A stretch of DNA of 24,461 nucleotides from a virus (Duplodnaviria; Heunggongvirae; Uroviricota; Caudoviricetes). The stretch lies in the IMG/VR virus record IMGVR_UViG_2541047952_000002. One strand, 5' to 3'. This document shows, in pieces, positions 1 to 21,554 of this stretch; position 1 is the first letter of the stretch, and every line of letters begins with the position of its first letter. A program made the translations under genes and the position numbers. The notes under the pieces are model-generated. The model worked only from the letters and a program-made list of their open reading frames with translations. It made no database searches and was not told the DNA's origin.

Positions 1-1053
1 TTACGGGGTAATGCCAACCGCTGCCGCCACTTTGTCGCCACTTGGCAGCGTTGCCAGAGGATTGAAACGGAGCGCCGTTTCCAGATGATCCGGTGCCAGA
101 TGTGCGTAACGCATAGTCATTTTTATATCGTGATGTCCGAGGATTTTTTGCAAAGCAAGGATATTTCCACCCGACATCATGAAATGCGCCGCAAACGTAT
201 GGCGCAGAACGTGTGTCAGTTGACCGCGAGGGAGCACGATAGACGTTTTTTCCATCACGGATAAAAATTGAAAATAGCAGTCTGTAAAGAAATTGAACCC
301 ATCAAGCGCCATGATCTCTTCGTAAAGCTCTTTACTGATAGGGATGCTCCTGTTTTTCTTCCCCTTCGTTCTTACAAAGGTAATTCGGTATTTGGTCACC
401 TGTGAGCGGGTAAGATTTATTGCTTCTCGCCAGCGTGCGCCTGTGCTTAGGCATATCTTGACTACCAGTGCCAGAATTGGGTTCTGACGTTTGCAGTCAG
501 ACAGTAATTCGATAATCTGCTCATGTGTAAGCCATGCCATTTCCTTTTCTGCGATAGTGAATTTGCGCATCTTCTCTAATGGGTTTGGAAGTGTCCATTC
601 ACCCAGGCGGGAAAGTTCTCTGAAAACGCTGCTTAGATGGCTTTGCTCCAGGTTAACAGTAACTGGGCTTGCTCCTTTCTTCCATTTTTCACTGAAGTAG
701 ATTTCACCAGTAAGGCGTTTATCGCGATAGTGAGCAAACATTTTTGAGGTGAGATCAGTTGCAAGGGGATTTCCCAAGGCGTCAACCATCAACAGCAGCT
801 TGTTGTAGACATTCTGTCCGGCAGTAAGAGATTTGCCATGTAATTTGAACCATAGCTCAACCATATCTTTCAGTGTCCGACGATCCACTGATTCGCCCAG
901 CCAGGGCTTTGCTTCTATTTCCCCCATGGTGTATCGCTCGAAGGCCAGTGCTTCGCCTTTGGTGGCGAATTGTTTACGCACACGACGCCCATTACGTCCG
1001 GCGGGGTAACATTCGCAAAGCCATTTCCCTGTGGTGAGTTTTCGTACTGCCAT
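1..1053 (-). CDS. int: Tyrosine site-specific integrase (P2/186 Int family)
   Basis: ORF 1..1209 (-). C-terminal 'HVLRHTFAAHFMMSGGNILALQKILGHHDIKMTMRYAHL' fits the tyrosine recombinase H-x-x-R ... Y catalytic signature. N-terminal 'GRNGRRVRKQFATKGEALAFE' resembles P2 Int. Start moved to in-frame ATG at 1051-1053 (~350 aa) preceded by GGAGGG; the 52-codon upstream extension to 1209 is probably non-coding. Confidence 0.88.
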   Translation of the reverse strand: MAVRKLTTGKWLCECYPAGRNGRRVRKQFATKGEALAFERYTMGEIEAKPWLGESVDRRTLKDMVELWFKLHGKSLTAGQNVYNKLLLMVDALGNPLATDLTSKMFAHYRDKRLTGEIYFSEKWKKGASPVTVNLEQSHLSSVFRELSRLGEWTLPNPLEKMRKFTIAEKEMAWLTHEQIIELLSDCKRQNPILALVVKICLSTGARWREAINLTRSQVTKYRITFVRTKGKKNRSIPISKELYEEIMALDGFNFFTDCYFQFLSVMEKTSIVLPRGQLTHVLRHTFAAHFMMSGGNILALQKILGHHDIKMTMRYAHLAPDHLETALRFNPLATLPSGDKVAAAVGITP

Positions 1054-1241
1054 AAAAAATGCCCTCCAGTAGAGAGCATTTTCACTGTATGTATAACCAG
1101 TGTCAATGTATGAAATCCTACGACCATACATCTCACTGAAGCCATAATTAAGTTGGCTATTCTTTTTGCTATGTGAGCATGTAACTTTTGCGGTTAACCT
1201 GCGGCTCATTTTTATTTTAGGCGCAGATATAAAAGCAAAAG

Positions 1242-3721: not shown

Positions 3722-3948
3722 TGGCTGATGCAATGGATCTCGTACAGCAGCGCGTTGAAGAAGAACGCCAACGCCATATCCGTGCTGCCCGTGCCAAAAC
3801 GCCGGGCGTGTCCCGCGTGCTTTGCATTGAGTGTGAAGCGCCAATTCCGCCAGCACGCCGCCGTGCCATTCCGGGTGTGCAGCTTTGCATTACCTGTCAG
3901 GAAATCGCAGAGCTGAAAGGCAAACATTACAACGGAGGTGCTGTATGA
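3721..3948 (+). CDS. TraR/DksA-family C4 zinc-finger protein
   Basis: 75 aa with C-x2-C...C-x2-C ('CIECEAPIPPARRRAIPGVQLCITCQ'), typical of the phage/plasmid TraR/DksA zinc-finger family. Translationally coupled to flanking genes. Confidence 0.7.
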   Translation: MADAMDLVQQRVEEERQRHIRAARAKTPGVSRVLCIECEAPIPPARRRAIPGVQLCITCQEIAELKGKHYNGGAV

Positions 3949-4802
3949 GCACCATCCTGAAATGGGCGGGAAATAAAACTGCCATAATGTCCGAACTGAA
4001 AAAACATCTTCCTGCTGGCCCGCGACTGGTTGAACCTTTCGCGGGTTCCTGTGCTGTGATGATGGAGACGGATTATCCCAGCTATCTGGTTGCGGATATT
4101 AATCCTGATTTAATCAACATCTATAAAAAGGTTGCCGCTGATTGTGAATCGTTTATATCTCGCGCCAGAGTTTTATTTAAGGAAGCAAACAGGGAGGTGG
4201 CTTATTACAACATAAGGCAGGAGTTTAATTACTCAACTGAAATTACTGATTTCATGAAAGCGGTATATTTCCTGTATCTCAATCGTCACGGTTACCGTGG
4301 TTTATGTCGCTATAACAAGAGCGGGCATTTCAACATTCCCTACGGTAATTATAAAAATCCGTATTTCCCTGAAAAAGAAATTCGCGCATTTGCAGAAAAG
4401 GCCCAGCGAGCAACGTTTATCTGCGCCAGCTTTGATGAAACGCTGGCGATGTTGAAGGCGGGGGATGTGGTGTATTGCGATCCGCCGTATGACGGTACGT
4501 TTTCCGGCTATCACACTGACGGCTTCACTGAAGATGACCAGTATCACCTGGCATCTGTTCTTGAACATCGGTCATCAGAAGGACATCCGGTCATTGTTTC
4601 TAACAGTGACACATCCCTGATCCGTTCGCTGTATCGCAATTTTACTCACCACTACATCAAGGCAAAACGCAGCATCGGTGTGGCAGCTGGCGAGGGTAAA
4701 TCAGCAACAGAAATCATTGCTGTTTCCGGGCCGCGCTGCTGGGTGGGATTTGATTATTCGCGTGGCGTGGATAGTTCTGCCGTGTACGGAGTACGTGCAT
4801 GA
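3945..4802 (+). CDS. dam: DNA adenine methyltransferase, Dam-like (N6-adenine MTase; GATC specificity inferred)
   Basis: ORF 3885..4802 trimmed to ATG 3945 (GGAGG 6 nt upstream, overlaps preceding stop). Motifs 'LKWAGNK', 'EPFAGS' (AdoMet binding), '[16 protein letters not shown]', 'PYFPE', 'FAEKAQ', 'VVYCDPPY' (catalytic DPPY), 'VSNSDT' are collinear with E. coli Dam as I recall it. Confidence 0.85.
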
Positions 4803-7213
4803 GTCATGCCGATATGAACAACTGCTGCGGCTTTAACGAAGCTGCCGCATCGTTCTCATGGAACAGCCCGAAAAAGGCCATTAACCCTTATCTGGACCCG
4901 GTGGAAGTTGCGCCGGTTTCTACGCTTTCAAACCTGATCACTCTGTACGCTGCCGATAACGAGCAGGAACAGCTGCGCCGTGAGGCGCTGAGTGATCAGG
5001 TCTGGGAGCGTTATTTCTTTAATGAATCCCGTGATCCTGTCCAGCGCGAAATGGAACAGGATAAGCTCATTAGTCGGGCAAAGCTGGCGCATGAGCAGCA
5101 GCGTTTTAATCCGGATATGGTCATTCTGGCGGACGTCAACGCCCAGCCCTCCCATATCAGCAAGCCGCTGATGCAACGTATTGAATATTTCAGCAGCCTG
5201 GGCAGGCCAAAGGCTTATTCCCGCTATTTGCGTGAGACGATTAAGCCATGTCTGGAACGACTGGAGCATGTCCGCGACTGTCAGCTATCCACTTCTTTTC
5301 GCTTTATGGCAAGCCATGAAGGGCTGGATGGCCTGCTTATCCTGCCTGAAATGAGTCAGGATCAGGTGAAGCGCCTGTCTACCCTTGTCGCTGCGCATAT
5401 GAGCATGTGCCTTGATGCCGCTTGTGGTGATTTGTATGCCACCGATGACGTTAAGCCAGAGGAAATCCGCAAAACATGGGAAAAGGTGGCAGCGGAAACC
5501 CTGCGTCTGGATGTTATTCCGCCTGCGTTTGAGCAACTCCGTCGGAAAAGAAACCGCCGTAAACCCGTGCCCTATGAACTCATTCCGGGTTCGTTGGCGC
5601 GTATGTTGTGTGCCGACTGGTGGTATCGGAAATTATGGAAGATGCGTTGCGAATGGCGGGAAGAGCAGTTGCGTGCTGTCTGCCTGGTCAGCAAAAAAGC
5701 ATCCCCCTATGTCAGCTATGAAGCCGTGATGCATAAACGTGAGCAGCGCCGTAAGTCGCTGGAGTTTTTCCGTTCTCATGAACTGGTGAACGAAGACGGC
5801 GACACGCTGGATATGGAAGATGTGGTAAACGCCAGCAGCAGCAACCCGGCGCATCGCCGCAATGAGATGATGGCCTGTGTTAAAGGTCTGGAGCTTATCG
5901 CGGAAATGCGCAGTGACTGCGCCGTTTTCTACACTATCACCTGTCCGTCGCGTTTCCATTCCACGCTCAATAACGGCAGACCCAACCCGACCTGGACAAA
6001 CTCGACGGTAAGACAAAGCAGCGACTATCTGGTCGGCATGTTTGCTGCATTTCGTAAGGCGATGCACAAAGCCGGATTGCGCTGGTATGGCGTGCGGGTG
6101 GCTGAGCCGCATCATGACGGTACAGTTCACTGGCACCTGTTGTGTTTTATGCGCAAAAAAGACCGCCGCGCCATCACTGCATTACTGCGTAAGTTTGCCA
6201 TCCGTGAAGACCGCGAGGAGCTGGGCAATAACACTGGGCCGCGCTTTAAGTCTGAGTTGATTAACCCGCGCAAAGGAACGCCGACAAGCTACATCGCGAA
6301 ATATATCAGTAAGAACATTGACGGGCGTGGTCTGGCTGGCGAGATCAGCAAGGAAACGGGTAAATCTCTGCGTGATAACGCTGAATACGTTAATGCCTGG
6401 GCGTCTCTGCATCGTGTTCAGCAATTCCGCTTCTTTGGCATTCCGGGGCGTCAGGCTTACCGTGAACTGCGATTGCTGGCTGGTCAGGCGGCAAGGCAAC
6501 AGGGTGACAAAAAAGCAGGTGCTCCGGTACTGGATAACCCGCGCCTTGATGCCATTCTGGCTGCTGCTGATGCTGGCTGTTTTGCCACCTACATTATGAA
6601 GCAGGGCGGCGTGTTGGTTCCCCGCAAATATCACTTGATCAGAACCGCTTATGAAATCAACGAAGAGCCGACCGCCTATGGCGATCACGGCATTCGTATT
6701 TATGGCATCTGGTCACCCATTGCAGAGGGCAAGATCTGCACTCATGCAGTGAAGTGGAAAATGGTTCGTAAGGCCGTTGACGTTCAGGAGGCGGCAGCCG
6801 ACCAGGGCGCTTGCGCCCCTTGGACTCGTGGCAATAACTGTCCCCTTGCTGAAAATTTGTACCAACAAGGGAAAGACAAATCAGCTGATGGAGATACCAG
6901 AACGGATATCACCCGCATGGATGACAAGGAGTTGCACGATTACCTGCACAGTATGAGCAAAAAAGAGCGCCGGGAACTGGCTGCAAGGTTACGCCTGGTG
7001 AAACCGAAACGGCGTAAAGACTACAAACAGCGAATTACAGACCATCAGCGACAGCAGCTCGTCTATGAACTGGAGTCCAGAGGATTTAATGGCAGCGAGA
7101 AAGAGGTCGATTTACTCCTTCGCGGCGGCAGTATTCCGTCAGGAGCAGGTCTGCGTATCTTCTATCGGAACCAGCGTTTGCAGGAAGATGATAAGTGGCG
7201 AAACCTGTATTAA
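4799..7213 (+). CDS. A: Replication initiation endonuclease gpA (HUH rolling-circle initiator)
   Basis: 804 aa. Start ATG overlaps dam stop (ATGA). HUH motif '[15 protein letters not shown]' and catalytic tyrosine motif '[11 protein letters not shown]' as in P2 A. Confidence 0.9.
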
Positions 7214-7366: not shown

Positions 7367-7555
7367 ATGCAGGACTATTTTTTGGAGTCTTTGAAGCTCC
7401 AGCGCATTGATTTTTTTCTTAAGCTTGTAGCGGCTAGTGAGTGTAGTGATGAAGAGAAGGGGCTGGCTTTGCAGTGGGTTTCTGAACTGACAGATGAACT
7501 CATGGCAAAAATCAGAAGCCACGAATACAACCGCTCAATGGATGTCATCAGCTGA
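7367..7555 (+). CDS. Hypothetical small protein (62 aa), first gene of the LexA-controlled module; possible Tum-like antirepressor component
   Basis: ORF 7265..7555 trimmed to ATG 7367 preceded by GGAGGA. Position downstream of gene A and behind a LexA box parallels 186 tum. No motif recognised. Confidence 0.4.
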   Translation: MQDYFLESLKLQRIDFFLKLVAASECSDEEKGLALQWVSELTDELMAKIRSHEYNRSMDVIS

Positions 7556-7565
7556 GGGGACTTTT

Positions 7566-7799
7566 ATGCGCATTGAAATAATGATCGATAAAGAGCAGAA
7601 GATTAGCCAGTCTACCCTGGACGCCCTTGAATCCGAGCTTTACCGCAATCTGCGCCCCCTGTATCCCAAAACGGTAATTCGTATCCGTAAAGGTAGCTCT
7701 AACGGTGTGGAACTGACCGGACTGCAACTGGACGAAGAAAGGAAGCAAGTGATGAAAATTATGCAGAAGGTGTGGGAAGACGACAGCTGGCTGCATTAA
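7566..7799 (+). CDS. dinI: DinI-family protein
   Basis: ORF 7494..7799 trimmed to ATG 7566 (GAGGGGA upstream). 'MRIEIMIDKEQKISQSTLDALESELYRNL...' and C-terminal 'KVWEDDSWL' resemble E. coli DinI ('MRIEVTIAK...TWESADDWF'). Confidence 0.7.
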   Translation: MRIEIMIDKEQKISQSTLDALESELYRNLRPLYPKTVIRIRKGSSNGVELTGLQLDEERKQVMKIMQKVWEDDSWLH

Positions 7800-7807
7800 G
7801 AAACGTT

Positions 7808-7837
7808 GCCCCCAAGAGAATTTATTCTGATGGGGGC
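7808..7837. terminator. Hairpin between convergent dinI-like and GNAT genes (probable bidirectional terminator)
   Basis: GCCCCCAAGAGAAT-TT-ATTCTGATGGGGGC forms a long imperfect stem, followed by TAGTTTGGG. Confidence 0.45.
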
Positions 7838-7912
7838 TAGTTTGGGCAATGAGTGAAACAAGGCGTAAGGTGGTCGGCCTGTTGGCAGCGTTGAAAAGCG
7901 AAAGCCGCAATA

Positions 7913-8332
7913 CTATAAATTAGTTTTTATTAGATAGTGCCTTTGTGCTCCTGCTTTAGGGAAATCAGGTAATGACATTTGAAGTATATAACCCTGTTTT
8001 TCATAAAAGGGGAGCGCCTGGAAGCTAAATGTATCGACAAGGCCATGAATACAACCGTTCATCACACCTTCTTTCTCAGCCATGCTCATAAGTTTGCTAC
8101 CCAAACCGCCACTCCGTGTTGATTCACTCACCCAAAGATAATCAATACACAGCCATGGGCCTTTCCTGTTCGCAATTAATCCACCTACCATCTCGCCGAT
8201 TTCATTTCTGCAGTAAACACCGATCTGTCCATTTTTACTAAAATCGATAAACTGAGCATTATAGCTTCTTAGCCCAGCTAACAGTTCTTCTCTATCATAT
8301 TCAGTAACTTTATTAACTACTTGAATGTCCAT
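7913..8332 (-). CDS. GNAT-family N-acetyltransferase (139 aa), cargo gene
   Basis: Acetyl-CoA-binding-type motif '[17 protein letters not shown]' (R/Q-x-x-G-x-G/A), then 'FYEKQGY'. AT-rich, opposite strand to neighbours. Confidence 0.7.
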
Positions 8333-8548
8333 ACATATCCGTTTTAGTGATTATTTTATTTAGTGCTAAATGTTATAGATAAGTTTCCTTTGTGTTTCAA
8401 TACATTGTTGTAAATTAAATCAATTTACCATTTCCAGGTCCGTTCCTTGCTCACAGCGAACCTTTACCTTTGTTAGCTCGAATGTGTCGTATTCAAACGG
8501 TCATTCAGATACGGATTTTCACTTCCCTTAGATTGTGCATGACTATGC

Positions 8549-8680
8549 CGCATGAATCTGCATGATCGTTTGAGGATCGTTTTTGCTAAGGCCCACCAGA
8601 ACTGGCGGGCTTTTGCGTAGATCATGCAGGTGCATGAAAACCACTACATAAAGCGGGCAGGCGTGGCGGGGATACGAGCG
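8549..8680. other. Candidate cos/packaging region: inverted repeats, terminator-like hairpin and a cos-like GGCGTGGCGGGGA motif
   Basis: GGCGTGGCGGGGA (8660-8672) matches the first 13 nt of the 186 cohesive end as I remember it (GGCGTGGCGGGGAAAGCAT; P2 GGCGAGGCGGGGAAAGCAC), then diverges. Upstream are a 17-nt imperfect inverted repeat (CATGAATCTGCATGATC 8551-8567 / GATCATGCAGGTGCATG 8620-8636) and a GC hairpin plus T-run (8591-8614). Confidence 0.3.
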
Positions 8681-8803
8681 CGCGCACGTGGCTTCTAGAC
8701 ATATATCAGAGGCTTTGTTTCAATCGTAATTTATTAAATTGATTATGTTTGAATGATTTGTCATATTCTATAAGTGTTCAAGATGGCAATAAGAGGTGTC
8801 TTA

Positions 8804-10405
8804 ATGTTTGAAATTCCGAAGGCTGATGGTTCTAGCTTTGAATTGAAGTTGGCTCCTGGAGAGGTTGTTTTCTTGTTAGGACCAAATGGTTCCGGAAAGT
8901 CTTCTATAATTGATTTTCTATACAAAAAATATCCTAATAGATTTGAGAAAATAATTGCGCATAGACAAAATTGGATTCAGTCTAACAGATCTAACGTATC
9001 CAATCATGAGAGTCATCAAACATCAGGTTATATTAAGAGTTGGGATTCGCAGGAGGAGTCAAGATACAAAGATGATTATTCCGGTCGTAGAACAGAGATC
9101 TTACTGAACAAAATAATCTCTGCAGAGAATCATGCAGCCAGAACTTTTGTCAATAATTTCTCCCTAGCTTCTCGCGAGGGGCGTGGTAATTTAACTCTTA
9201 CGGAAACACCAGTTGAGAAAATTAATAGATGCCTGAATGAAGCTTTTATTAATATTACGATAAGAATAGATGATTCGGATTCTTTGTTGGTAAGTCGCAA
9301 TGGCTCTGATGAATATAGCTTGGCTCAGCTTTCTGACGGAGAAAGAAATGCAATATTTATTGCAATTGCCATTTTTACAGCCCCAGACGGCGCCTTTTTT
9401 TTAATCGATGAGCCAGAGAGGCATTTGCATCCTTCAATATCTCATTCGTTGATTAAATCTCTTTTAAATGAGCGCCCCGATTGTGGATATGTAATATCCA
9501 CACATGATTTATCTTTGCCATCAGCAGTACCTCATTCCAGAGTGTTGTTGCTGAGAGATTGCGTGTATGAAAATATGCGACCAGTTCGTTGGTATATAGA
9601 CGCAATTGACTCATTGGCGGAAATTGATGAGAGGCTTCGAGAAGACATACTTGGGTCAAGGAAAAAAATAATCTTTGTTGAGGGTAATACATCATCAAGC
9701 TTAGACCAGAAGCTATACTCGATAATTTTTCCAGGTTATTCGGTAATACCAAAAGCTAGTTGCGATTATGTCGAGCGTTCTGTGGATGGTCTGAGAGAGT
9801 CGGAAAATCTTCATCATGTAATTCCATATGGTATTATTGATAATGATAATAAACCTGAACGACAGGTTTCAAATCTTGAAATGAAAGGGGTTTATTCTTT
9901 AAATGTGCACTCAATTGAATCAATATACTATCATCCGGAATTAATTTTAAACGTAATTAATAATTATAAGGATTCTCAAAATATATCGGACCCCGATGCA
10001 TTATATGCGCAGTTGTGTGACGAGTCATTGTCCATGCTTTCCGAGCACAAAGAAAGACTATGCTGTAGAGCAATAGAGAAAGCCATTAGGTCTAAGCTAT
10101 TTTCGAATTTGCCAACTTTGAGAAGTATTGAAGCGGGGAATGATGTTAATATAAATATTAACGTTGGTGATTTTTTGAGAGAAGAAATTGTCTTTTTTGA
10201 AAACTGTCTACGTCAGCAAGATCTCATCAGTTTAGTCGAAAAATATCCAATTCGTGAAACTGCTTATATCGCTAAGGTGCATAAGCTATTGGGGTATTCA
10301 ACGCGTCAACTTTACGAGCATAATCTTTTACGCCTTGTAACGTCGAATTCTGAGGTGAAAAATATTGCCAAAAGGCTGATTGGCAATATTTGCAATGTTA
10401 TATGA
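8804..10405 (+). CDS. Solitary ABC-type ATPase fused to a Toprim-like nuclease domain (OLD-family / PARIS AriAB-like candidate anti-phage protein)
   Basis: ORF 8774..10405 (GTG) trimmed to ATG 8804, 7 nt after AAGAGG. Walker A 'GPNGSGKS', ABC signature-like 'LSDGERN', Walker B plus His 'FFLIDEPERHLHPS'. C-terminal half has 'KKIIFVEGNTSS' (Toprim glutamate) and 'GIIDNDNK' (DxD). Strongly AT-rich. Confidence 0.8.
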   Translation: MFEIPKADGSSFELKLAPGEVVFLLGPNGSGKSSIIDFLYKKYPNRFEKIIAHRQNWIQSNRSNVSNHESHQTSGYIKSWDSQEESRYKDDYSGRRTEILLNKIISAENHAARTFVNNFSLASREGRGNLTLTETPVEKINRCLNEAFINITIRIDDSDSLLVSRNGSDEYSLAQLSDGERNAIFIAIAIFTAPDGAFFLIDEPERHLHPSISHSLIKSLLNERPDCGYVISTHDLSLPSAVPHSRVLLLRDCVYENMRPVRWYIDAIDSLAEIDERLREDILGSRKKIIFVEGNTSSSLDQKLYSIIFPGYSVIPKASCDYVERSVDGLRESENLHHVIPYGIIDNDNKPERQVSNLEMKGVYSLNVHSIESIYYHPELILNVINNYKDSQNISDPDALYAQLCDESLSMLSEHKERLCCRAIEKAIRSKLFSNLPTLRSIEAGNDVNININVGDFLREEIVFFENCLRQQDLISLVEKYPIRETAYIAKVHKLLGYSTRQLYEHNLLRLVTSNSEVKNIAKRLIGNICNVI

Positions 10406-10439: not shown

Positions 10440-11474
10440 CTAAAGTGCGTAGCTTGAAAAAAGTATAATTTCATCAGCCAACCAGTTGTTTAATTCACTG
10501 AGCCTTTTCTGCAGCGGCATCAGCTCGTTGCGGACAAAGACGCGGCTGGCCTTTTCCACATCACCAAAGCCGCCTGTGTTGTTGGGGATAATCCCCATCA
10601 TCTGCGGCGGTACTCGGTGCGCCGCCATCATGTCATCCCGGCTCACATTCTTGATATTCAAAAACTCATCCTTTGCCGCCACCTCTGACAGTGGGATGAT
10701 CTGAATGCCGTCCTTTTTGCCGTTGGGCGAGTACATAAACAGGTTGCGAAAATTGCCCGGCCCTTTGGCGCTTTTCATGGCCTGGCGGATGTTGTTCACG
10801 TCTTCCTGATTCTGCGCGGCGTCGGTCATGTACATGATAAAACCCGCGTGGCTGCCGTTGATGTAGTACTTCCGGCGGAACAGAGTAGCGGACTCATTCA
10901 GCAAGGCGGAAGGGATGGCGGACAGGTATTCCGGCAGGCCATAAATCTCCTGGTTCAGGTCCGGCTCCATCAGGTGAAAGATGCTGCCTTTGGTGAACTC
11001 GTAGGGCTGCGTGGTCATGCCGTATTGCACAAACCAGTAAGTGTCTAGGTCGATCCCGCGGCGGGTGTATTTCGCCAGTGATGGCTCCAGCGACAGAATG
11101 CCGCCCAACCGGTTCGTCCGTTTCTCCAGGTAGGCATTACCGAACACCAGATAGTCCTGCACGAAACGGCTGAATGCCTGCTGACTTAATAGCGGGTGCG
11201 GAATGAACGTGCTGGTCAGAATGTTGCGCTTAACGGCAATCGGTGAGCTGTGATGTATGGCGGCACGGTAAGTGCGGGCCAGGCCGTCAAAGCTCACGGG
11301 CGGCTCATACCACTTATCCATCTGCACACATTCTACGTAGTCCAGGAGTTCGCGGCGGTCCAGTACCGGGATGGGGTCGCCAAAGCTGAACGCTTCGACG
11401 TGAGTTGTGTTCTTCTGCTGTACGGTTTCCTGCACTGGCGCGATGCGGGTAAGGGCGTCGTGTTCACTCATCAA
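10440..11474 (-). CDS. Q: Portal (capsid portal vertex) protein gpQ
   Basis: 344 aa, same length as P2 Q. 'FSFGDP' N-terminal region. Start overlaps terminase stop (ATGA). Divergent from the O-N-M-L operon as in P2. Confidence 0.9.
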   Translation of the reverse strand: MMSEHDALTRIAPVQETVQQKNTTHVEAFSFGDPIPVLDRRELLDYVECVQMDKWYEPPVSFDGLARTYRAAIHHSSPIAVKRNILTSTFIPHPLLSQQAFSRFVQDYLVFGNAYLEKRTNRLGGILSLEPSLAKYTRRGIDLDTYWFVQYGMTTQPYEFTKGSIFHLMEPDLNQEIYGLPEYLSAIPSALLNESATLFRRKYYINGSHAGFIMYMTDAAQNQEDVNNIRQAMKSAKGPGNFRNLFMYSPNGKKDGIQIIPLSEVAAKDEFLNIKNVSRDDMMAAHRVPPQMMGIIPNNTGGFGDVEKASRVFVRNELMPLQKRLSELNNWLADEIILFSSYAL

Positions 11475-17978: not shown

Positions 17979-18372
17979 AGCGGTGCCTTATGTCCGCAAT
18001 AACCCGGACAAACTGCATCTGTTTGTGGATAACGGTTCGCTGGTTGCTACGGGGGCCAGCTCCATGTCATGGGAGTACCGTTACACCCTGAACGTGGTGA
18101 TTGAGGATTTCAGCGGCGACCAGAATCTGCTGATGGCCCCGGTTTTGCTGTGGCTGCGGGATAACCAGCCCGATGCCATCAATAACCCGGCGTTACGGGA
18201 AAAACTATTTACCTTTGAGGTGGATATTCTGCGCAACGATGTCTGTGATATCAGCCTTAACCTGCAACTGACGGAACGTGTGCTGGTCAGCACTGACGGC
18301 AGTGTGTCGAGCGTTGAAGCGGTAGCAGAACCCGATGAACCTGAAGAAATGTGGACGGTGAAACGTGGCTGA
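17941..18372 (+). CDS. R: Tail completion protein gpR
   Basis: ORF 17920..18372 (TTG) trimmed to GTG 17941, 7 nt after AGGAG. 'SLRHALNKAV...LHLFVDNGSLVAT...YRYTLNVVIEDFSGD' resembles P2 R. Confidence 0.75.
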   Translation: MNKPQSLRHALNKAVPYVRNNPDKLHLFVDNGSLVATGASSMSWEYRYTLNVVIEDFSGDQNLLMAPVLLWLRDNQPDAINNPALREKLFTFEVDILRNDVCDISLNLQLTERVLVSTDGSVSSVEAVAEPDEPEEMWTVKRG

Positions 18373-18811
18373 ACTGCAGAAGGTGGACGACTGGCTTAGT
18401 GCCTTACTGGCGAATCTGGAACCAGTCGCAAGAAGCCGCATGATGCGCCAGCTGGCGCAGGAACTGCGCCGGACACAGCAGCAGAATATCAGGATGCAGC
18501 GCAATCCAGATGGCAGCAGTTATGAACCGCGCAAGGTCACGGCGCGCAGTAAAAAAGGCCGCATCAAACGTCAGATGTTTGCAAAGCTGCGCACCACCAA
18601 ATACCTGAAAACCGCCGCCAGCGCCGACTCTGCCTGCATACAGTTTGAAAGTAAGGTGCAGCGCATTGCCCGCGTTCACCATTATGGCCTGCGCGATCGC
18701 GTCAGCCGCAAAGGACCGGAAGTGCGTTACGCAGAGCGTCGTTTACTTGGAATGAATGAATATGCAGAAAATATAGTAAAAGATATATTGTTTCAGTTGC
18801 TAATAAAATGA
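18365..18811 (+). CDS. S: Tail completion protein gpS
   Basis: 148 aa (P2 S ~150), overlaps R stop. Position as P2 S. Confidence 0.8.
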   Translation: MAELQKVDDWLSALLANLEPVARSRMMRQLAQELRRTQQQNIRMQRNPDGSSYEPRKVTARSKKGRIKRQMFAKLRTTKYLKTAASADSACIQFESKVQRIARVHHYGLRDRVSRKGPEVRYAERRLLGMNEYAENIVKDILFQLLIK

Positions 18812-19005: not shown

Positions 19006-19659
19006 CTAATCCATAAATGGTTCAAGAATTGGACCTAATTCAGCATCTTCCATAATGATCCATCTGCAAAATGATGAAAAAGCTGCGTCTCTTTTTATCA
19101 TCATCTTCATTTTTTCAATTAAGTATTTTTTTTGTTCTGTTGGAGTATCTTCTTCATAATATTCATTAATATTTTTAATTAGTTTTTGGGTTGTTTTCAC
19201 TACTTGAGTACGAAGTGCCGCAGAAGTTAATTTTTTACTCATGGTATGATCGCTATTATATACTTTCTCAAGTAACTCTGCGGTCGTCTGCGTTTCAATA
19301 TCATTAAATAGTGCTGTTACTGTTATTTTTTTTGCTTTATAAGAATATCCTGGGAGTAATTTTACTCGATCCCATACCTTTTCTTTACAGCAATCAAGAA
19401 TGTTGTCATATTTTGATAGTTTTATATTGTTACATCTGGAACATGATAGATATAAATTATCCCAATCAAAAGCTCTTTCCACATCATCACCCTTGGGTTT
19501 AAAATGTTCAATGTTTATATCCAAAGGGTTCTTTGTTTCGCAAATGTAACATTTTCCATAAAAGCATTCCTGTAGTGCTTCATGTACATCAGCACCATCA
19601 TAACGTGCTTTCTTGGAAAGAGACTTTGGTGCAGGATATGTTCTATTAACCTTGAACAT
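19006..19659 (-). CDS. HNH endonuclease (217 aa), second gene of an ATPase + HNH pair (Septu PtuB-like)
   Basis: HNH-type motif 'CYICETKNPLDINIEHFKPK...FDWDNLYLSCSRCNNIK' (C-x2-C ... H ... N ... C-x2-C-N). Start ATG overlaps the upstream ATPase stop by 1 nt (TAATG). Very AT-rich. Confidence 0.8.
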   Translation of the reverse strand: MFKVNRTYPAPKSLSKKARYDGADVHEALQECFYGKCYICETKNPLDINIEHFKPKGDDVERAFDWDNLYLSCSRCNNIKLSKYDNILDCCKEKVWDRVKLLPGYSYKAKKITVTALFNDIETQTTAELLEKVYNSDHTMSKKLTSAALRTQVVKTTQKLIKNINEYYEEDTPTEQKKYLIEKMKMMIKRDAAFSSFCRWIIMEDAELGPILEPFMD

Positions 19660-20888
19660 TATTTCTCCTGAGAATTTGCTTTTTTATATTTTAGTATCTG
19701 CATTTTTGCATAGTCAATAAATGCACTTGCATGGATGTCCATGGATTCATCTAAAGGTGCTAAGGATTGTATTATGTTATTGGCAGTTTCAATATTGTTG
19801 TTGTTAATATTGTCAATAATATCTTGAAGTTGTTCTAACTTATCTGAAAGAACTTTAGATATTGGACTTACTCCGAATAATTCTTGAAGGATGATACCAT
19901 AAGAATATGAAGACACATCACTAATTTTCGCGTTGGTCGATAGATCATAAATGATGGCATTTGTGACGGATGTAACAACAAACGGAGAATGTGTAGTGAC
20001 AATGAATTGTACTTTAGGAAAGGAGTGACTAAAAAATCTTAATATTTGCTTTTGCAAAGAAACATGTAAATGCGCATCTATTTCATCAATAAAAATAATA
20101 CCTTCGATACTGTCAGGTGTTAAACCCCACATTTCTACTCTCATTATTAAGTCAGCGTAAATTCTCAATATTGATGAGTGGCCAGAAGATAATGTTTGAA
20201 AAGTAAACTTATCTTTACCATCTTGATTGAGATAAAATTTTCCTTCGTTACTATCAAACGTTAGTAAGAGGTTTTTATCTTCAAAAAGTTCCTGCATATC
20301 AGTTTCAATTTTATCAAACCATTTCTGTATCCGCTGAGCTTTCTTATGGTCATTATCAAAAGAAATTGCATAGCTCTGAGCTGTTTTTAAACTAACCAAA
20401 TAATTCTCAAAGAAATCATCACCATCTACTTCATTAGAAAAATGTGATTTTTCATTAATTAAAGCCGATAGCCTAGGAACGGCAATTGGCGAGGTAATTG
20501 ATGCTTCACGTAGAGCTTTGTGAAATCTCAATAGTGAACGTGTTTCACCTTCTTTTTCTTTTGTTTCTATTCTAATGGCTTTTAATTGTTCAATTTTTAA
20601 TTCAATGTTTTTTATTTCTTCAGAATAAAAGTTGTAATTAACGTCGTCACGCCCGCCGTTATTTAAGTGATATTTGTAGGACTCTAACGTATTGTATAAA
20701 TTATTGATGTTATGATCATTAGGTCTATCTATCTTATTTTTAAGGAAATCATAAATAGATCTAATAAAACTAGTTTTTCCACACCCGTTACCACCAGTTA
20801 TTATGAGATTTTTACCGTCAAGCAATAAGTTTGCTGTCTTATTAGTGTATGGAATTGGAGCATAAATTTCATTTATTGATGTAAGCAT
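19659..20888 (-). CDS. ABC-type (AAA_15/AAA_21-like) ATPase (410 aa), first gene of an ATPase + HNH pair (Septu PtuA-like)
   Basis: ORF 19659..20987 trimmed to ATG at 20886-20888 (AAGGGA 7 nt upstream); the longer form would overlap the V start. Walker A 'GGNGCGKTS', 'LSSGHSSIL', Walker B plus His 'IIFIDEIDAHLHVS', 'FIVTTHSPF'. Confidence 0.8.
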   Translation of the reverse strand: MLTSINEIYAPIPYTNKTANLLLDGKNLIITGGNGCGKTSFIRSIYDFLKNKIDRPNDHNINNLYNTLESYKYHLNNGGRDDVNYNFYSEEIKNIELKIEQLKAIRIETKEKEGETRSLLRFHKALREASITSPIAVPRLSALINEKSHFSNEVDGDDFFENYLVSLKTAQSYAISFDNDHKKAQRIQKWFDKIETDMQELFEDKNLLLTFDSNEGKFYLNQDGKDKFTFQTLSSGHSSILRIYADLIMRVEMWGLTPDSIEGIIFIDEIDAHLHVSLQKQILRFFSHSFPKVQFIVTTHSPFVVTSVTNAIIYDLSTNAKISDVSSYSYGIILQELFGVSPISKVLSDKLEQLQDIIDNINNNNIETANNIIQSLAPLDESMDIHASAFIDYAKMQILKYKKANSQEK

Positions 20889-20897
20889 ATATTCCCT

Positions 20898-20915
20898 TGT
20901 ATCGTTAACAGTACA
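20898..20915 (+). promoter_or_regulatory. Candidate PV late-promoter Ogr/B box (TGT-N12-ACA)
   Basis: TGTATCGTTAACAGTACA lies ~60 bp upstream of the V start, with an A/T-rich -10 candidate (GATAATAAT) downstream. It starts 10 bp from the PtuA-like start codon on the opposite strand. Confidence 0.45.
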
Positions 20916-20975
20916 ACTACAACACTGATAATAATACAACTTATTGAGATACAGTTCACCTTTAAGGGGGGAAGG

Positions 20976-21554
20976 GTGAACGCACAATTAACCGAAATCA
21001 TGCGCCTTATCACCAACCTGATCCGCACTGGGGTAGTCACCGAAGTGGACAGGGAAAACTGGCTTTGCCGAGTGAAAACGGGCGAGCTTGAAACTAACTG
21101 GATCAGTTGGCTGACGCTGCGTGCAGGAAATGCCCGGACATGGTGGCGACCATCGGAAGGTGAGCAGGTGGTGCTGCTGAGTCTGGGGGGCAATCTGGAA
21201 ACGGCCTTTGCGCTGCCCGCTGTCTATTCGAATCAGTTTGCGCCACCGTCGACGTCGGCGGACGCCTGTGTGACAGAATATCCTGACGGTGGCTGGTTTG
21301 AATACGAACCTGCCACCGGGCGCTGGTATGTCAGGGGCATCAAATCCATGGTCATTGAGGCTGCCGATAACATCACCCTGAAAACCAGTGAGTTTGTGCT
21401 GGAGGCTGACCGCACGCGTATTAACAGCGAAGTGGTGATCAATGGTGGCGTTACCCAGGGCGGCGGAGCGATGAGCTCTAACGGGATTGTGGTTGATGCG
21501 CATCAGCATACTGGCGTCCTGAAAGGCGGCGATACAACCGGAGGCCCGGTATGA
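20976..21554 (+). CDS. V: Baseplate spike/assembly protein gpV
   Basis: 192 aa, GTG start with AAGGGGGG RBS. 'WLTLRAGNARTWWRPSEGEQV' and 'HQHTG...GGDTTGGP' resemble P2 V. Confidence 0.85.
   Translation: MNAQLTEIMRLITNLIRTGVVTEVDRENWLCRVKTGELETNWISWLTLRAGNARTWWRPSEGEQVVLLSLGGNLETAFALPAVYSNQFAPPSTSADACVTEYPDGGWFEYEPATGRWYVRGIKSMVIEAADNITLKTSEFVLEADRTRINSEVVINGGVTQGGGAMSSNGIVVDAHQHTGVLKGGDTTGGPV

Follow-up and report, generated by a model that had tools for sequence, protein, structure and literature searches.

The window analyzed here, a stretch of 24,461 nucleotides (nt) from the IMG/VR virus record IMGVR_UViG_2541047952_000002, comprised a single 186/Fels-2-type prophage of the P2 family. 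A GNAT N-acetyltransferase gene was located on its minus strand (7913..8332), starting with ATG and encoding 139 amino acids (aa). The gene lies between the replication endonuclease gene gpA (4799..7213) and gpQ, adjoins the cos site (about 8660) and is variable among homologous prophages. A preliminary description, made from the sequence alone, had already recognized an orphan GNAT on the opposite strand of the A-to-Q variable region, and this was borne out: the gene occupies the hotspot position of a P2-family prophage and has no partner gene. It is an ordinary solitary cargo gene, one more of the uncharacterized GNAT kind.

The product of this open reading frame (ORF) matched the Pfam families Acetyltransf_1 (8e-10, 39.5 bits with a curated cut-off of 20.7) and Acetyltransf_7 (7e-9, 36.3 bits with a curated cut-off of 27). 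The signature of the GNAT superfamily, Q/R-x-x-G-x-G/A after strand β4, was present as R-x-x-G-x-G. The acetyl-CoA motif R73-S-G-G-L-G78 (RSGGLG) was intact, as had been proposed, and the motif quoted earlier corresponds to residues 73-82. Residues R73, G78 and Y110 (within PFYEKQGY) showed no variation in an alignment with 27 homologues, and Y110 is presumed to be the general acid. The AlphaFold2 model based on this alignment (mean predicted local distance difference test score (pLDDT) 87, predicted template modelling score (pTM) 0.83) displayed the full strand and helix order of a complete mixed α/β GNAT fold. A total of 348 homologues were found, and the source names were generic. The ratio of nonsynonymous to synonymous substitution rates (dN/dS) was 0.065 in the comparison with a Salmonella copy of 82% identity, and ranged from 0.12 to 0.25 in those with the E. 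coli variants. These values (0.07-0.25) indicate that the GNAT is functional and under purifying selection, and the ORF was uninterrupted at each GNAT locus seen. The homologues, the dN/dS values and the confident fold together establish a real gene beyond a chance ORF. The AT-richness noticed earlier was also confirmed, with a G+C content of about 0.43 in the ORF region versus 0.50-0.57 in the gpA/portal backbone. The predicted isoelectric point (pI) was 6.1. The PHROGs match, phrog_3810 (3e-23), is labelled merely 'acetyltransferase', and a PADLOC scan gave no match for the protein.

The GNAT gene is convergent with a DinI-like gene of 77 aa (7566..7799, plus strand; PF06183, 1e-22), which is the final backbone gene of the early rightward operon. 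The hairpin reported between them could be confirmed at 7808..7837, 9 nt past the dinI stop. It is GC-rich and reads GCCCCCA...TGGGGGC, with a GC stem of 7 base pairs (bp) and an inner stem of 4 bp. Its centroid structure was calculated at -18.6 kcal/mol, and the 121-nt intergenic region gave a z-score of -1.9 for one strand and of -2.5 for the other. Since homology with the backbone of the BL21 prophage reaches window position 7877, the hairpin was assigned to the conserved backbone around dinI, outside the GNAT cassette. It is probably a bidirectional terminator. Another ORF, of 120 aa (7548..7910, minus strand), starts 3 nt past the stop codon of the GNAT. It runs antisense to dinI, which is conserved, gave no match in a permissive Pfam scan and was treated as spurious.

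On the other side of the GNAT gene lies a conserved, cos-proximal backbone block (8451..8686). Its non-coding 150-bp part (8535-8686) was 91-97% conserved in Fels-2, SopEPhi, RE2010 and many Klebsiella P2-like phages, and was also kept in phages without the GNAT. The linear record of Salmonella phage SEN8 terminates precisely at window position 8659. The following 19 bases, GGCGTGGCGGGGATACGAG (8660-8678), are presumed to be the 19-nt cohesive end, and they resemble the cohesive end (cos sequence) of phage 186. The block was identified as the cos region because of this resemblance and of the SEN8 terminus. In the packaged chromosome, the GNAT gene stands at the extreme right and the PARIS gene described below at the extreme left. 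A structured RNA in the 150-bp block was considered and dropped, as Rfam detected no RNA family in the block or the rest of the window and the block is accounted for as the cos region.

The borders of the cassette were obtained by comparison with the prophage of BL21 (locus L023). In the blastn alignment the homology ended at window position 7877 and returned at 8451, therefore the exchangeable unit is 573 bp long (7878..8450, minus strand). In this unit the ORF is flanked by 35 nt on its 3' side and, on its 5' side, by 118 nt that contain the putative promoter. At the equivalent position, BL21 carries a DUF8087 gene of 111 aa on the same strand. In a megablast search, the GNAT was found in 7 of 5426 complete E. 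coli genomes, compared with 1277 for the flanking backbone. The alignment of six GNAT-bearing loci was nearly perfect between the dinI stop and a point about 8 nt beyond the cohesive end, after which the sequences diverged totally.

A putative sigma-70 promoter of the GNAT (8372..8400, minus strand) was identified by eye, with the -35 hexamer TTGAAA at 8400..8395, a spacer of 17 nt and the -10 hexamer TATAAC, ending in C, at 8377..8372. Neither hexamer differed across the six independent loci. An automatic consensus promoter scan found no site upstream of the GNAT; the scanner missed TATAAC because it demands a T at the final -10 position. We infer that the GNAT has its own sigma-70-like promoter.

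The neighbour across cos is a fused AriA-AriB (PARIS) gene of 533 aa (8804..10405, plus strand; PADLOC AriAB PDLC02982, 8e-58; Pfam AAA_21 and DUF4435). It lies on the left-arm side, directly left of cos, and its G+C content is about 0.35-0.40. Translation probably begins at the ATG at 8804, which has the Shine-Dalgarno sequence AAGAGG before it, rather than at the GTG at 8774. Beyond cos, the GNAT cassette (94-98% DNA identity) was paired with at least seven different cargos. Fused PARIS was the cargo in the window prophage, and the others were a 290-aa hypothetical protein, three hypothetical proteins, IS100 with a St85-family retron, an unknown 418-aa protein, Cap4_nuclease with a 552-aa protein, a 593-aa protein matching phrog_26759, and AAA_21 with SIR2_2. 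As the cassette occurs with many other cargos, the GNAT is no component of PARIS or of any single defence system. A tie between the GNAT and PARIS was accordingly rejected, the GNAT having no PADLOC match and many of the co-occurring cargos being other than AriAB. The last of these comes from Rousset et al. (2022) (PMC9122126), whose Table S5A lists AAA_21 and SIR2_2 together with 'Acetyltransf_1/7/10 + DinI + hypothetical'; the GNAT itself was neither singled out nor tested there.

The gpA-gpQ hotspot thus consists of two separately exchangeable slots split by cos. Between dinI and cos is the small right-arm slot, which contained either the GNAT or the DUF8087 gene, and the left-arm slot, between cos and Q, contained the recognizable defence systems. 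The motif GT[TG]CGCTGTG[AG] was repeated in the right-arm cassettes, each time at the border facing cos, at about 8440-8465 in the window, at about 4190-4215 in the BL21 locus and at about 4590-4615 and 5865-5890 in locus L032. In the latter it occurred twice, with a DUF8087-type cassette and a GNAT cassette stacked. The motif suggests that cassettes may be exchanged or stacked via recombination at a short common sequence. Beside it, a GAAGCG hexamer was repeated, from two copies in BL21 to seven in L032. One GNAT-bearing prophage, from E. coli E300010 (locus L003, 6920-8721), carried IS100 (istA/istB) a few bases ahead of the cohesive-end sequence. Its dam and gpA genes were truncated, and this prophage is probably defective.

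Relatives of the GNAT were found in several other contexts. Solitary chromosomal orthologues, with 60-70% identity overall, were detected in Providencia (about 60%, after mtlADR) and Pectobacterium (about 63%, between lptG and roxA). A Salmonella copy of 64% identity was located beside the end of an integrative element. In Salmonella enterica (L004-L009) an 84% orthologue was present in a prophage-remnant island, between a gene for an NEL/LRR E3-ligase effector and sopE2. Other neighbours in this island were a HigB/HTH_3 pair, a GT4-conflict glycosyltransferase and genes of the DUF2971 and DUF1398 families. Common flanks of the island copy and the prophage copy were looked for and rejected, the homology being confined to the ORF (82% nucleotide identity). 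Therefore, the coding sequence was acquired by itself on more than one occasion. Since the neighbours differed in every genus, no operon partner could be named and a function based on a conserved neighbourhood was rejected. The nearest relatives are solitary chromosomal genes of Enterobacterales, and the ancestry of the GNAT is chromosomal and solitary.

A scan of IMG/VR retrieved the P2-type loci, the Salmonella island and a 69%-identical copy in a lambdoid prophage. The lambdoid copy (L042, 5351-9189) was placed between the Q antiterminator gene with tRNA-Arg(UCU) and the holin/endolysin/Rz genes. The interval from Q to the lysis genes is a classical lambdoid cargo site. After this GNAT, about 1.5 kb followed without a convincing ORF. 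These positions indicate that temperate phages have captured the GNAT family independently at two different cargo sites, one P2-type and one lambdoid. The family was also carried by 99 plasmid or chromid records of Pantoea, Clostridium, Rhizobium, Legionella, Vibrio and others, which are large, mostly non-mobilizable replicons distributed across phyla. A tblastn search of deposited phage genomes gave no close relatives, its sole matches having 35-39% identity, and a literature search on P2-like phages together with GNAT returned nothing specific.

The best solved relatives were 1Y9W from Bacillus cereus ATCC 14579 (7e-24 by profile) and 2G3A from Agrobacterium tumefaciens (1e-19). Like the window protein, both are about 140 aa long and show a minimal GNAT architecture; the identity within the aligned core was 32-38%. 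As they are structural-genomics entries to which no substrate is assigned, the match names the family and not the function. A total of 104 residues superposed tightly (1.4 Å), but the global root-mean-square deviation was 12-14 Å, so that the monomer model may not correspond to the crystal forms, perhaps owing to a strand swap. Further fold matches did not discriminate, as Naa10/Ard1, RimI-type N-terminal acetyltransferases, streptothricin-type enzymes and AAC(6')-Ii scored alike. After 1Y9W, 2G3A and DDE_3044, the first Foldseek match of known function was AAC(6')-Ii of Enterococcus faecium (E about 2e-8), with a template modelling score of 0.77 normalized by query length and 20-21% identity; it is longer, with about 180 aa versus 139. 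Streptothricin and nourseothricin acetyltransferases were also among the Foldseek matches. Among the NCBIfam curated resistance models, the sole match was again AAC(6')-Ii, with 12.5 bits against a cut-off of 300. The suggestion that the gene encodes an antibiotic-modifying enzyme thus found no backing in the known AAC models, and no support was found for the idea of an effector.

Two small GNAT proteins active in phage-host conflict offered a comparison. The anti-CRISPR AcrVA5 has 1Y9W as its best reported structural match (PMC8949011), and Brc113, here likened by its description, is a solitary GNAT-domain integron cassette reported to confer phage resistance (bioRxiv 10.1101/2024.07.02.601719). 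Like the GNAT in the window, both are solitary genes on mobile elements. However, AcrVA5 has 92 aa and the resemblance to it is at the level of the fold only (22% identity reported). The lysogenic-conversion cargo genes of the tin/old type from the hotspot described in PMC9122126 were similar in other respects. The GNAT is likewise cos-adjacent, AT-rich compared with the backbone, provided with a putative promoter of its own and swapped between near-identical prophages, but it differs in lying on the right-arm side of cos, whereas the recognizable defence systems lie on the left-arm side.

The preliminary description had considered a toxin of the TacT/AtaT type, with a short antitoxin hidden upstream. 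What defines toxins of this kind is an antitoxin gene of the DUF1778 or DUF4065 type next to them, together with their place in one monophyletic clade (PMC9177977). The known GNAT/DUF1778 systems (TacAT, AtaRT, KacAT and ItaRT) have the GNAT fold, the use of acetyl-CoA and the location on mobile elements in common with the window gene. In contrast, the latter is without an adjacent antitoxin gene, is shorter and mildly acidic, has solitary chromosomal orthologues and showed no specific sequence or fold affinity to them. All ORFs of at least 20 aa around the GNAT were listed and those upstream were subjected to a permissive Pfam scan (E ≤ 10). No such ORF was present in 8333-8469 on either strand, and the four ORFs in 8470-8702 had no Pfam match. 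The nearest one on the minus strand (8473..8625, 50 aa) is 140 bp upstream and falls partly within the 8535-8686 block common to phages without the GNAT. It was rejected as an antitoxin, being distant, overlapping the backbone of GNAT-less phages and lacking any DUF1778 or ribbon-helix-helix-like match.

In about ten genomic contexts (E. coli, Salmonella, Providencia, Pectobacterium and lambdoid), no small adjacent partner gene was found. The solved tRNA-acetylating toxins were absent from both the sequence and the fold matches, and no specific sequence similarity to known toxins placed the protein in the true toxin-antitoxin clade. The sequence data therefore give no support to a toxin-antitoxin reading. 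Orthology to a housekeeping-type acetyltransferase, combined with the absence of toxicity and of a partner gene, had been named beforehand as evidence that would speak against a toxin; apart from the part on toxicity, this is what was found. GNAT toxins have about 160-175 aa and a basic tRNA-binding surface. An enzyme that acetylates aminoacyl-tRNA and is held in check by an unrecognized short or non-protein antitoxin is highly improbable, even though a small GNAT on a mobile element recalls those GNAT toxins that are carried by prophages or plasmids and the 50-aa ORF does lie 140 bp upstream. That ORF is partly shared backbone, none of the upstream ORFs had a Pfam match, and no DUF1778 or DUF4065 gene adjoined the GNAT in the window or in the other contexts. 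Moreover, a protein of 139 aa with a pI of 6.1 is smaller and less basic than these toxins, and its solitary orthologues, with 60-70% identity, were stably retained in chromosomes.

Further genes of the prophage belong to its 186/Fels-2-type backbone and to a second group of cargo. The integrase gene is located at 1..1209, and a CI repressor gene is also encoded. A D12-class N6-adenine DNA methyltransferase gene of the early operon (3885..4802, plus strand; PF02086, 5e-77) overlaps the start of gpA, and genes of this class were also found in related prophages. The portal (10440..11474) and terminase genes are on the minus strand. A Septu system (19006-20987, minus strand) is inserted in the late-gene region, between gene S (18365..18811, tail completion) and gene V (20976..21554, baseplate), which is a second cargo hotspot of this prophage. 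It consists of PtuA (19659..20987, minus strand; PADLOC PDLC00268, 2e-138) and the HNH protein PtuB (19006..19659, minus strand; PDLC00321, 5e-100).

The explanation that we consider probable is that the gene encodes a solitary GNAT, catalytically intact as judged from its sequence, which forms a self-contained cargo cassette in the dinI-cos slot of a 186/Fels-2-type prophage, is expressed in the lysogen and acetylates an amine. In the lysogen, transcription of the GNAT would start at its own sigma-70 promoter and run leftward, opposing the early operon. In this it would resemble the P2 tin and old genes, which are lysogen-expressed and have the same position and leftward orientation. The enzyme would move the acetyl group from acetyl-CoA to a primary amine of the substrate, with Y110 as the general acid. 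As our best guess, the substrate would be the amine of a small molecule or peptide, for example a toxic metabolite or an antibiotic. This choice was put first because the orthologues are fixed chromosomal genes with ordinary neighbours. The second choice would be a lysine or the N-terminus of a specific protein involved in phage-host conflict, for which AcrVA5 (PMC8949011) and Brc113 (bioRxiv 10.1101/2024.07.02.601719) are precedents. The lysogen may gain a fitness benefit through detoxification, and the GNAT would not be a growth-arresting toxin. Several points weigh against this explanation. Expression in the lysogen is inferred from the promoter sequence, the site in a documented defence hotspot (PMC9122126) fits a role in defence or counter-defence equally, and the cassette is rare (7 of 5426 E. 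coli genomes compared with 1277 containing the flanking backbone), therefore any benefit is not general. The location alone is not decisive, since the hotspot also contains non-defence cargo (PMC9122126).

A role of the gene, on its own, in anti-phage defence or counter-defence is fairly unlikely. The enzyme would then act in the manner of AcrVA5 or Brc113 and acetylate a lysine or the N-terminus of a protein of a competing phage, or of an immune protein of the host or of a rival. The gpA-gpQ hotspot next to cos is documented for defence and many of its cargos are defence systems, but it holds partition systems and a cytolethal toxin as well (PMC9122126). The window prophage also carries fused PARIS and Septu, the Salmonella copy neighbours HigBA and the GT4-conflict glycosyltransferase, and phage resistance was reported for the solitary cassette Brc113 (bioRxiv 10.1101/2024.07.02.601719). 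However, PADLOC gave no match, and the likeness to AcrVA5 does not go beyond the fold. The close orthologues are fixed and solitary in metabolic neighbourhoods of Providencia and Pectobacterium, and the family is found on chromids across phyla; a general enzyme therefore fits better than an arms-race gene. A broader proposal, that the 1Y9W-type GNAT subfamily is a recurrent single-gene conflict module, appears quite unlikely; the subfamily would then be a new group of defence or anti-defence enzymes descended from chromosomal genes. Temperate phages would have captured such a module independently at the P2-type dinI-cos site, the lambdoid Q-lysis interval and the Salmonella prophage-remnant island. 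Like AcrVA5, it might acetylate a single lysine or N-terminus of one specific protein, and in this way shield the lysogen or inactivate the immunity of a rival.

A resistance enzyme modifying an antibiotic or toxin with an undescribed specificity (aminoglycoside, streptothricin, blasticidin or aminoacyl-nucleotide) would be a specific version of the explanation favoured above, and we regard it as unlikely. The best Foldseek neighbour with a known function, AAC(6')-Ii (2e-8, 20-21% identity), the streptothricin and nourseothricin acetyltransferases among the fold matches and the weak NCBIfam match to AAC(6')-Ii point in this direction, as does the source label 'blasticidin S-acetyltransferase' of some Pectobacterium orthologues. 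However, this label is automatic and untested, the fold ranking did not discriminate, the 12.5 bits are far from the curated cut-off of 300, and the 99 plasmid records had neither resistance labels nor resistance-gene contexts. That the prophage carries the gene without any present function, as a neutral passenger or decaying hitch-hiker, is very unlikely. The low number of carriers among the complete E. coli genomes and the state of some of these prophages would agree with it, one being degraded (truncated dam and gpA, with IS100 beside cos) and another having a frameshifted gpA. In contrast, the ORF is intact at all loci seen, the dN/dS values are 0.12-0.25 among the E. coli copies and 0.065 against Salmonella, the promoter hexamers are kept and two cargo sites were reached independently in temperate phages.

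The arrangement with the GNAT had already been catalogued, without discussion, in the published survey of the P2 hotspot (PMC9122126). The present analysis removes a tempting toxin-antitoxin annotation from this gene. It divides the gpA-gpQ hotspot into two slots on either side of cos, and the GNAT assorts independently of the left-arm defence systems. Should the GNAT prove to acetylate a protein of a phage or of an immune system, the repertoire of phage-host conflict would gain an enzymatic module made up of a single gene. Should it instead serve to detoxify a small molecule, it would represent a modest case of lysogenic conversion.
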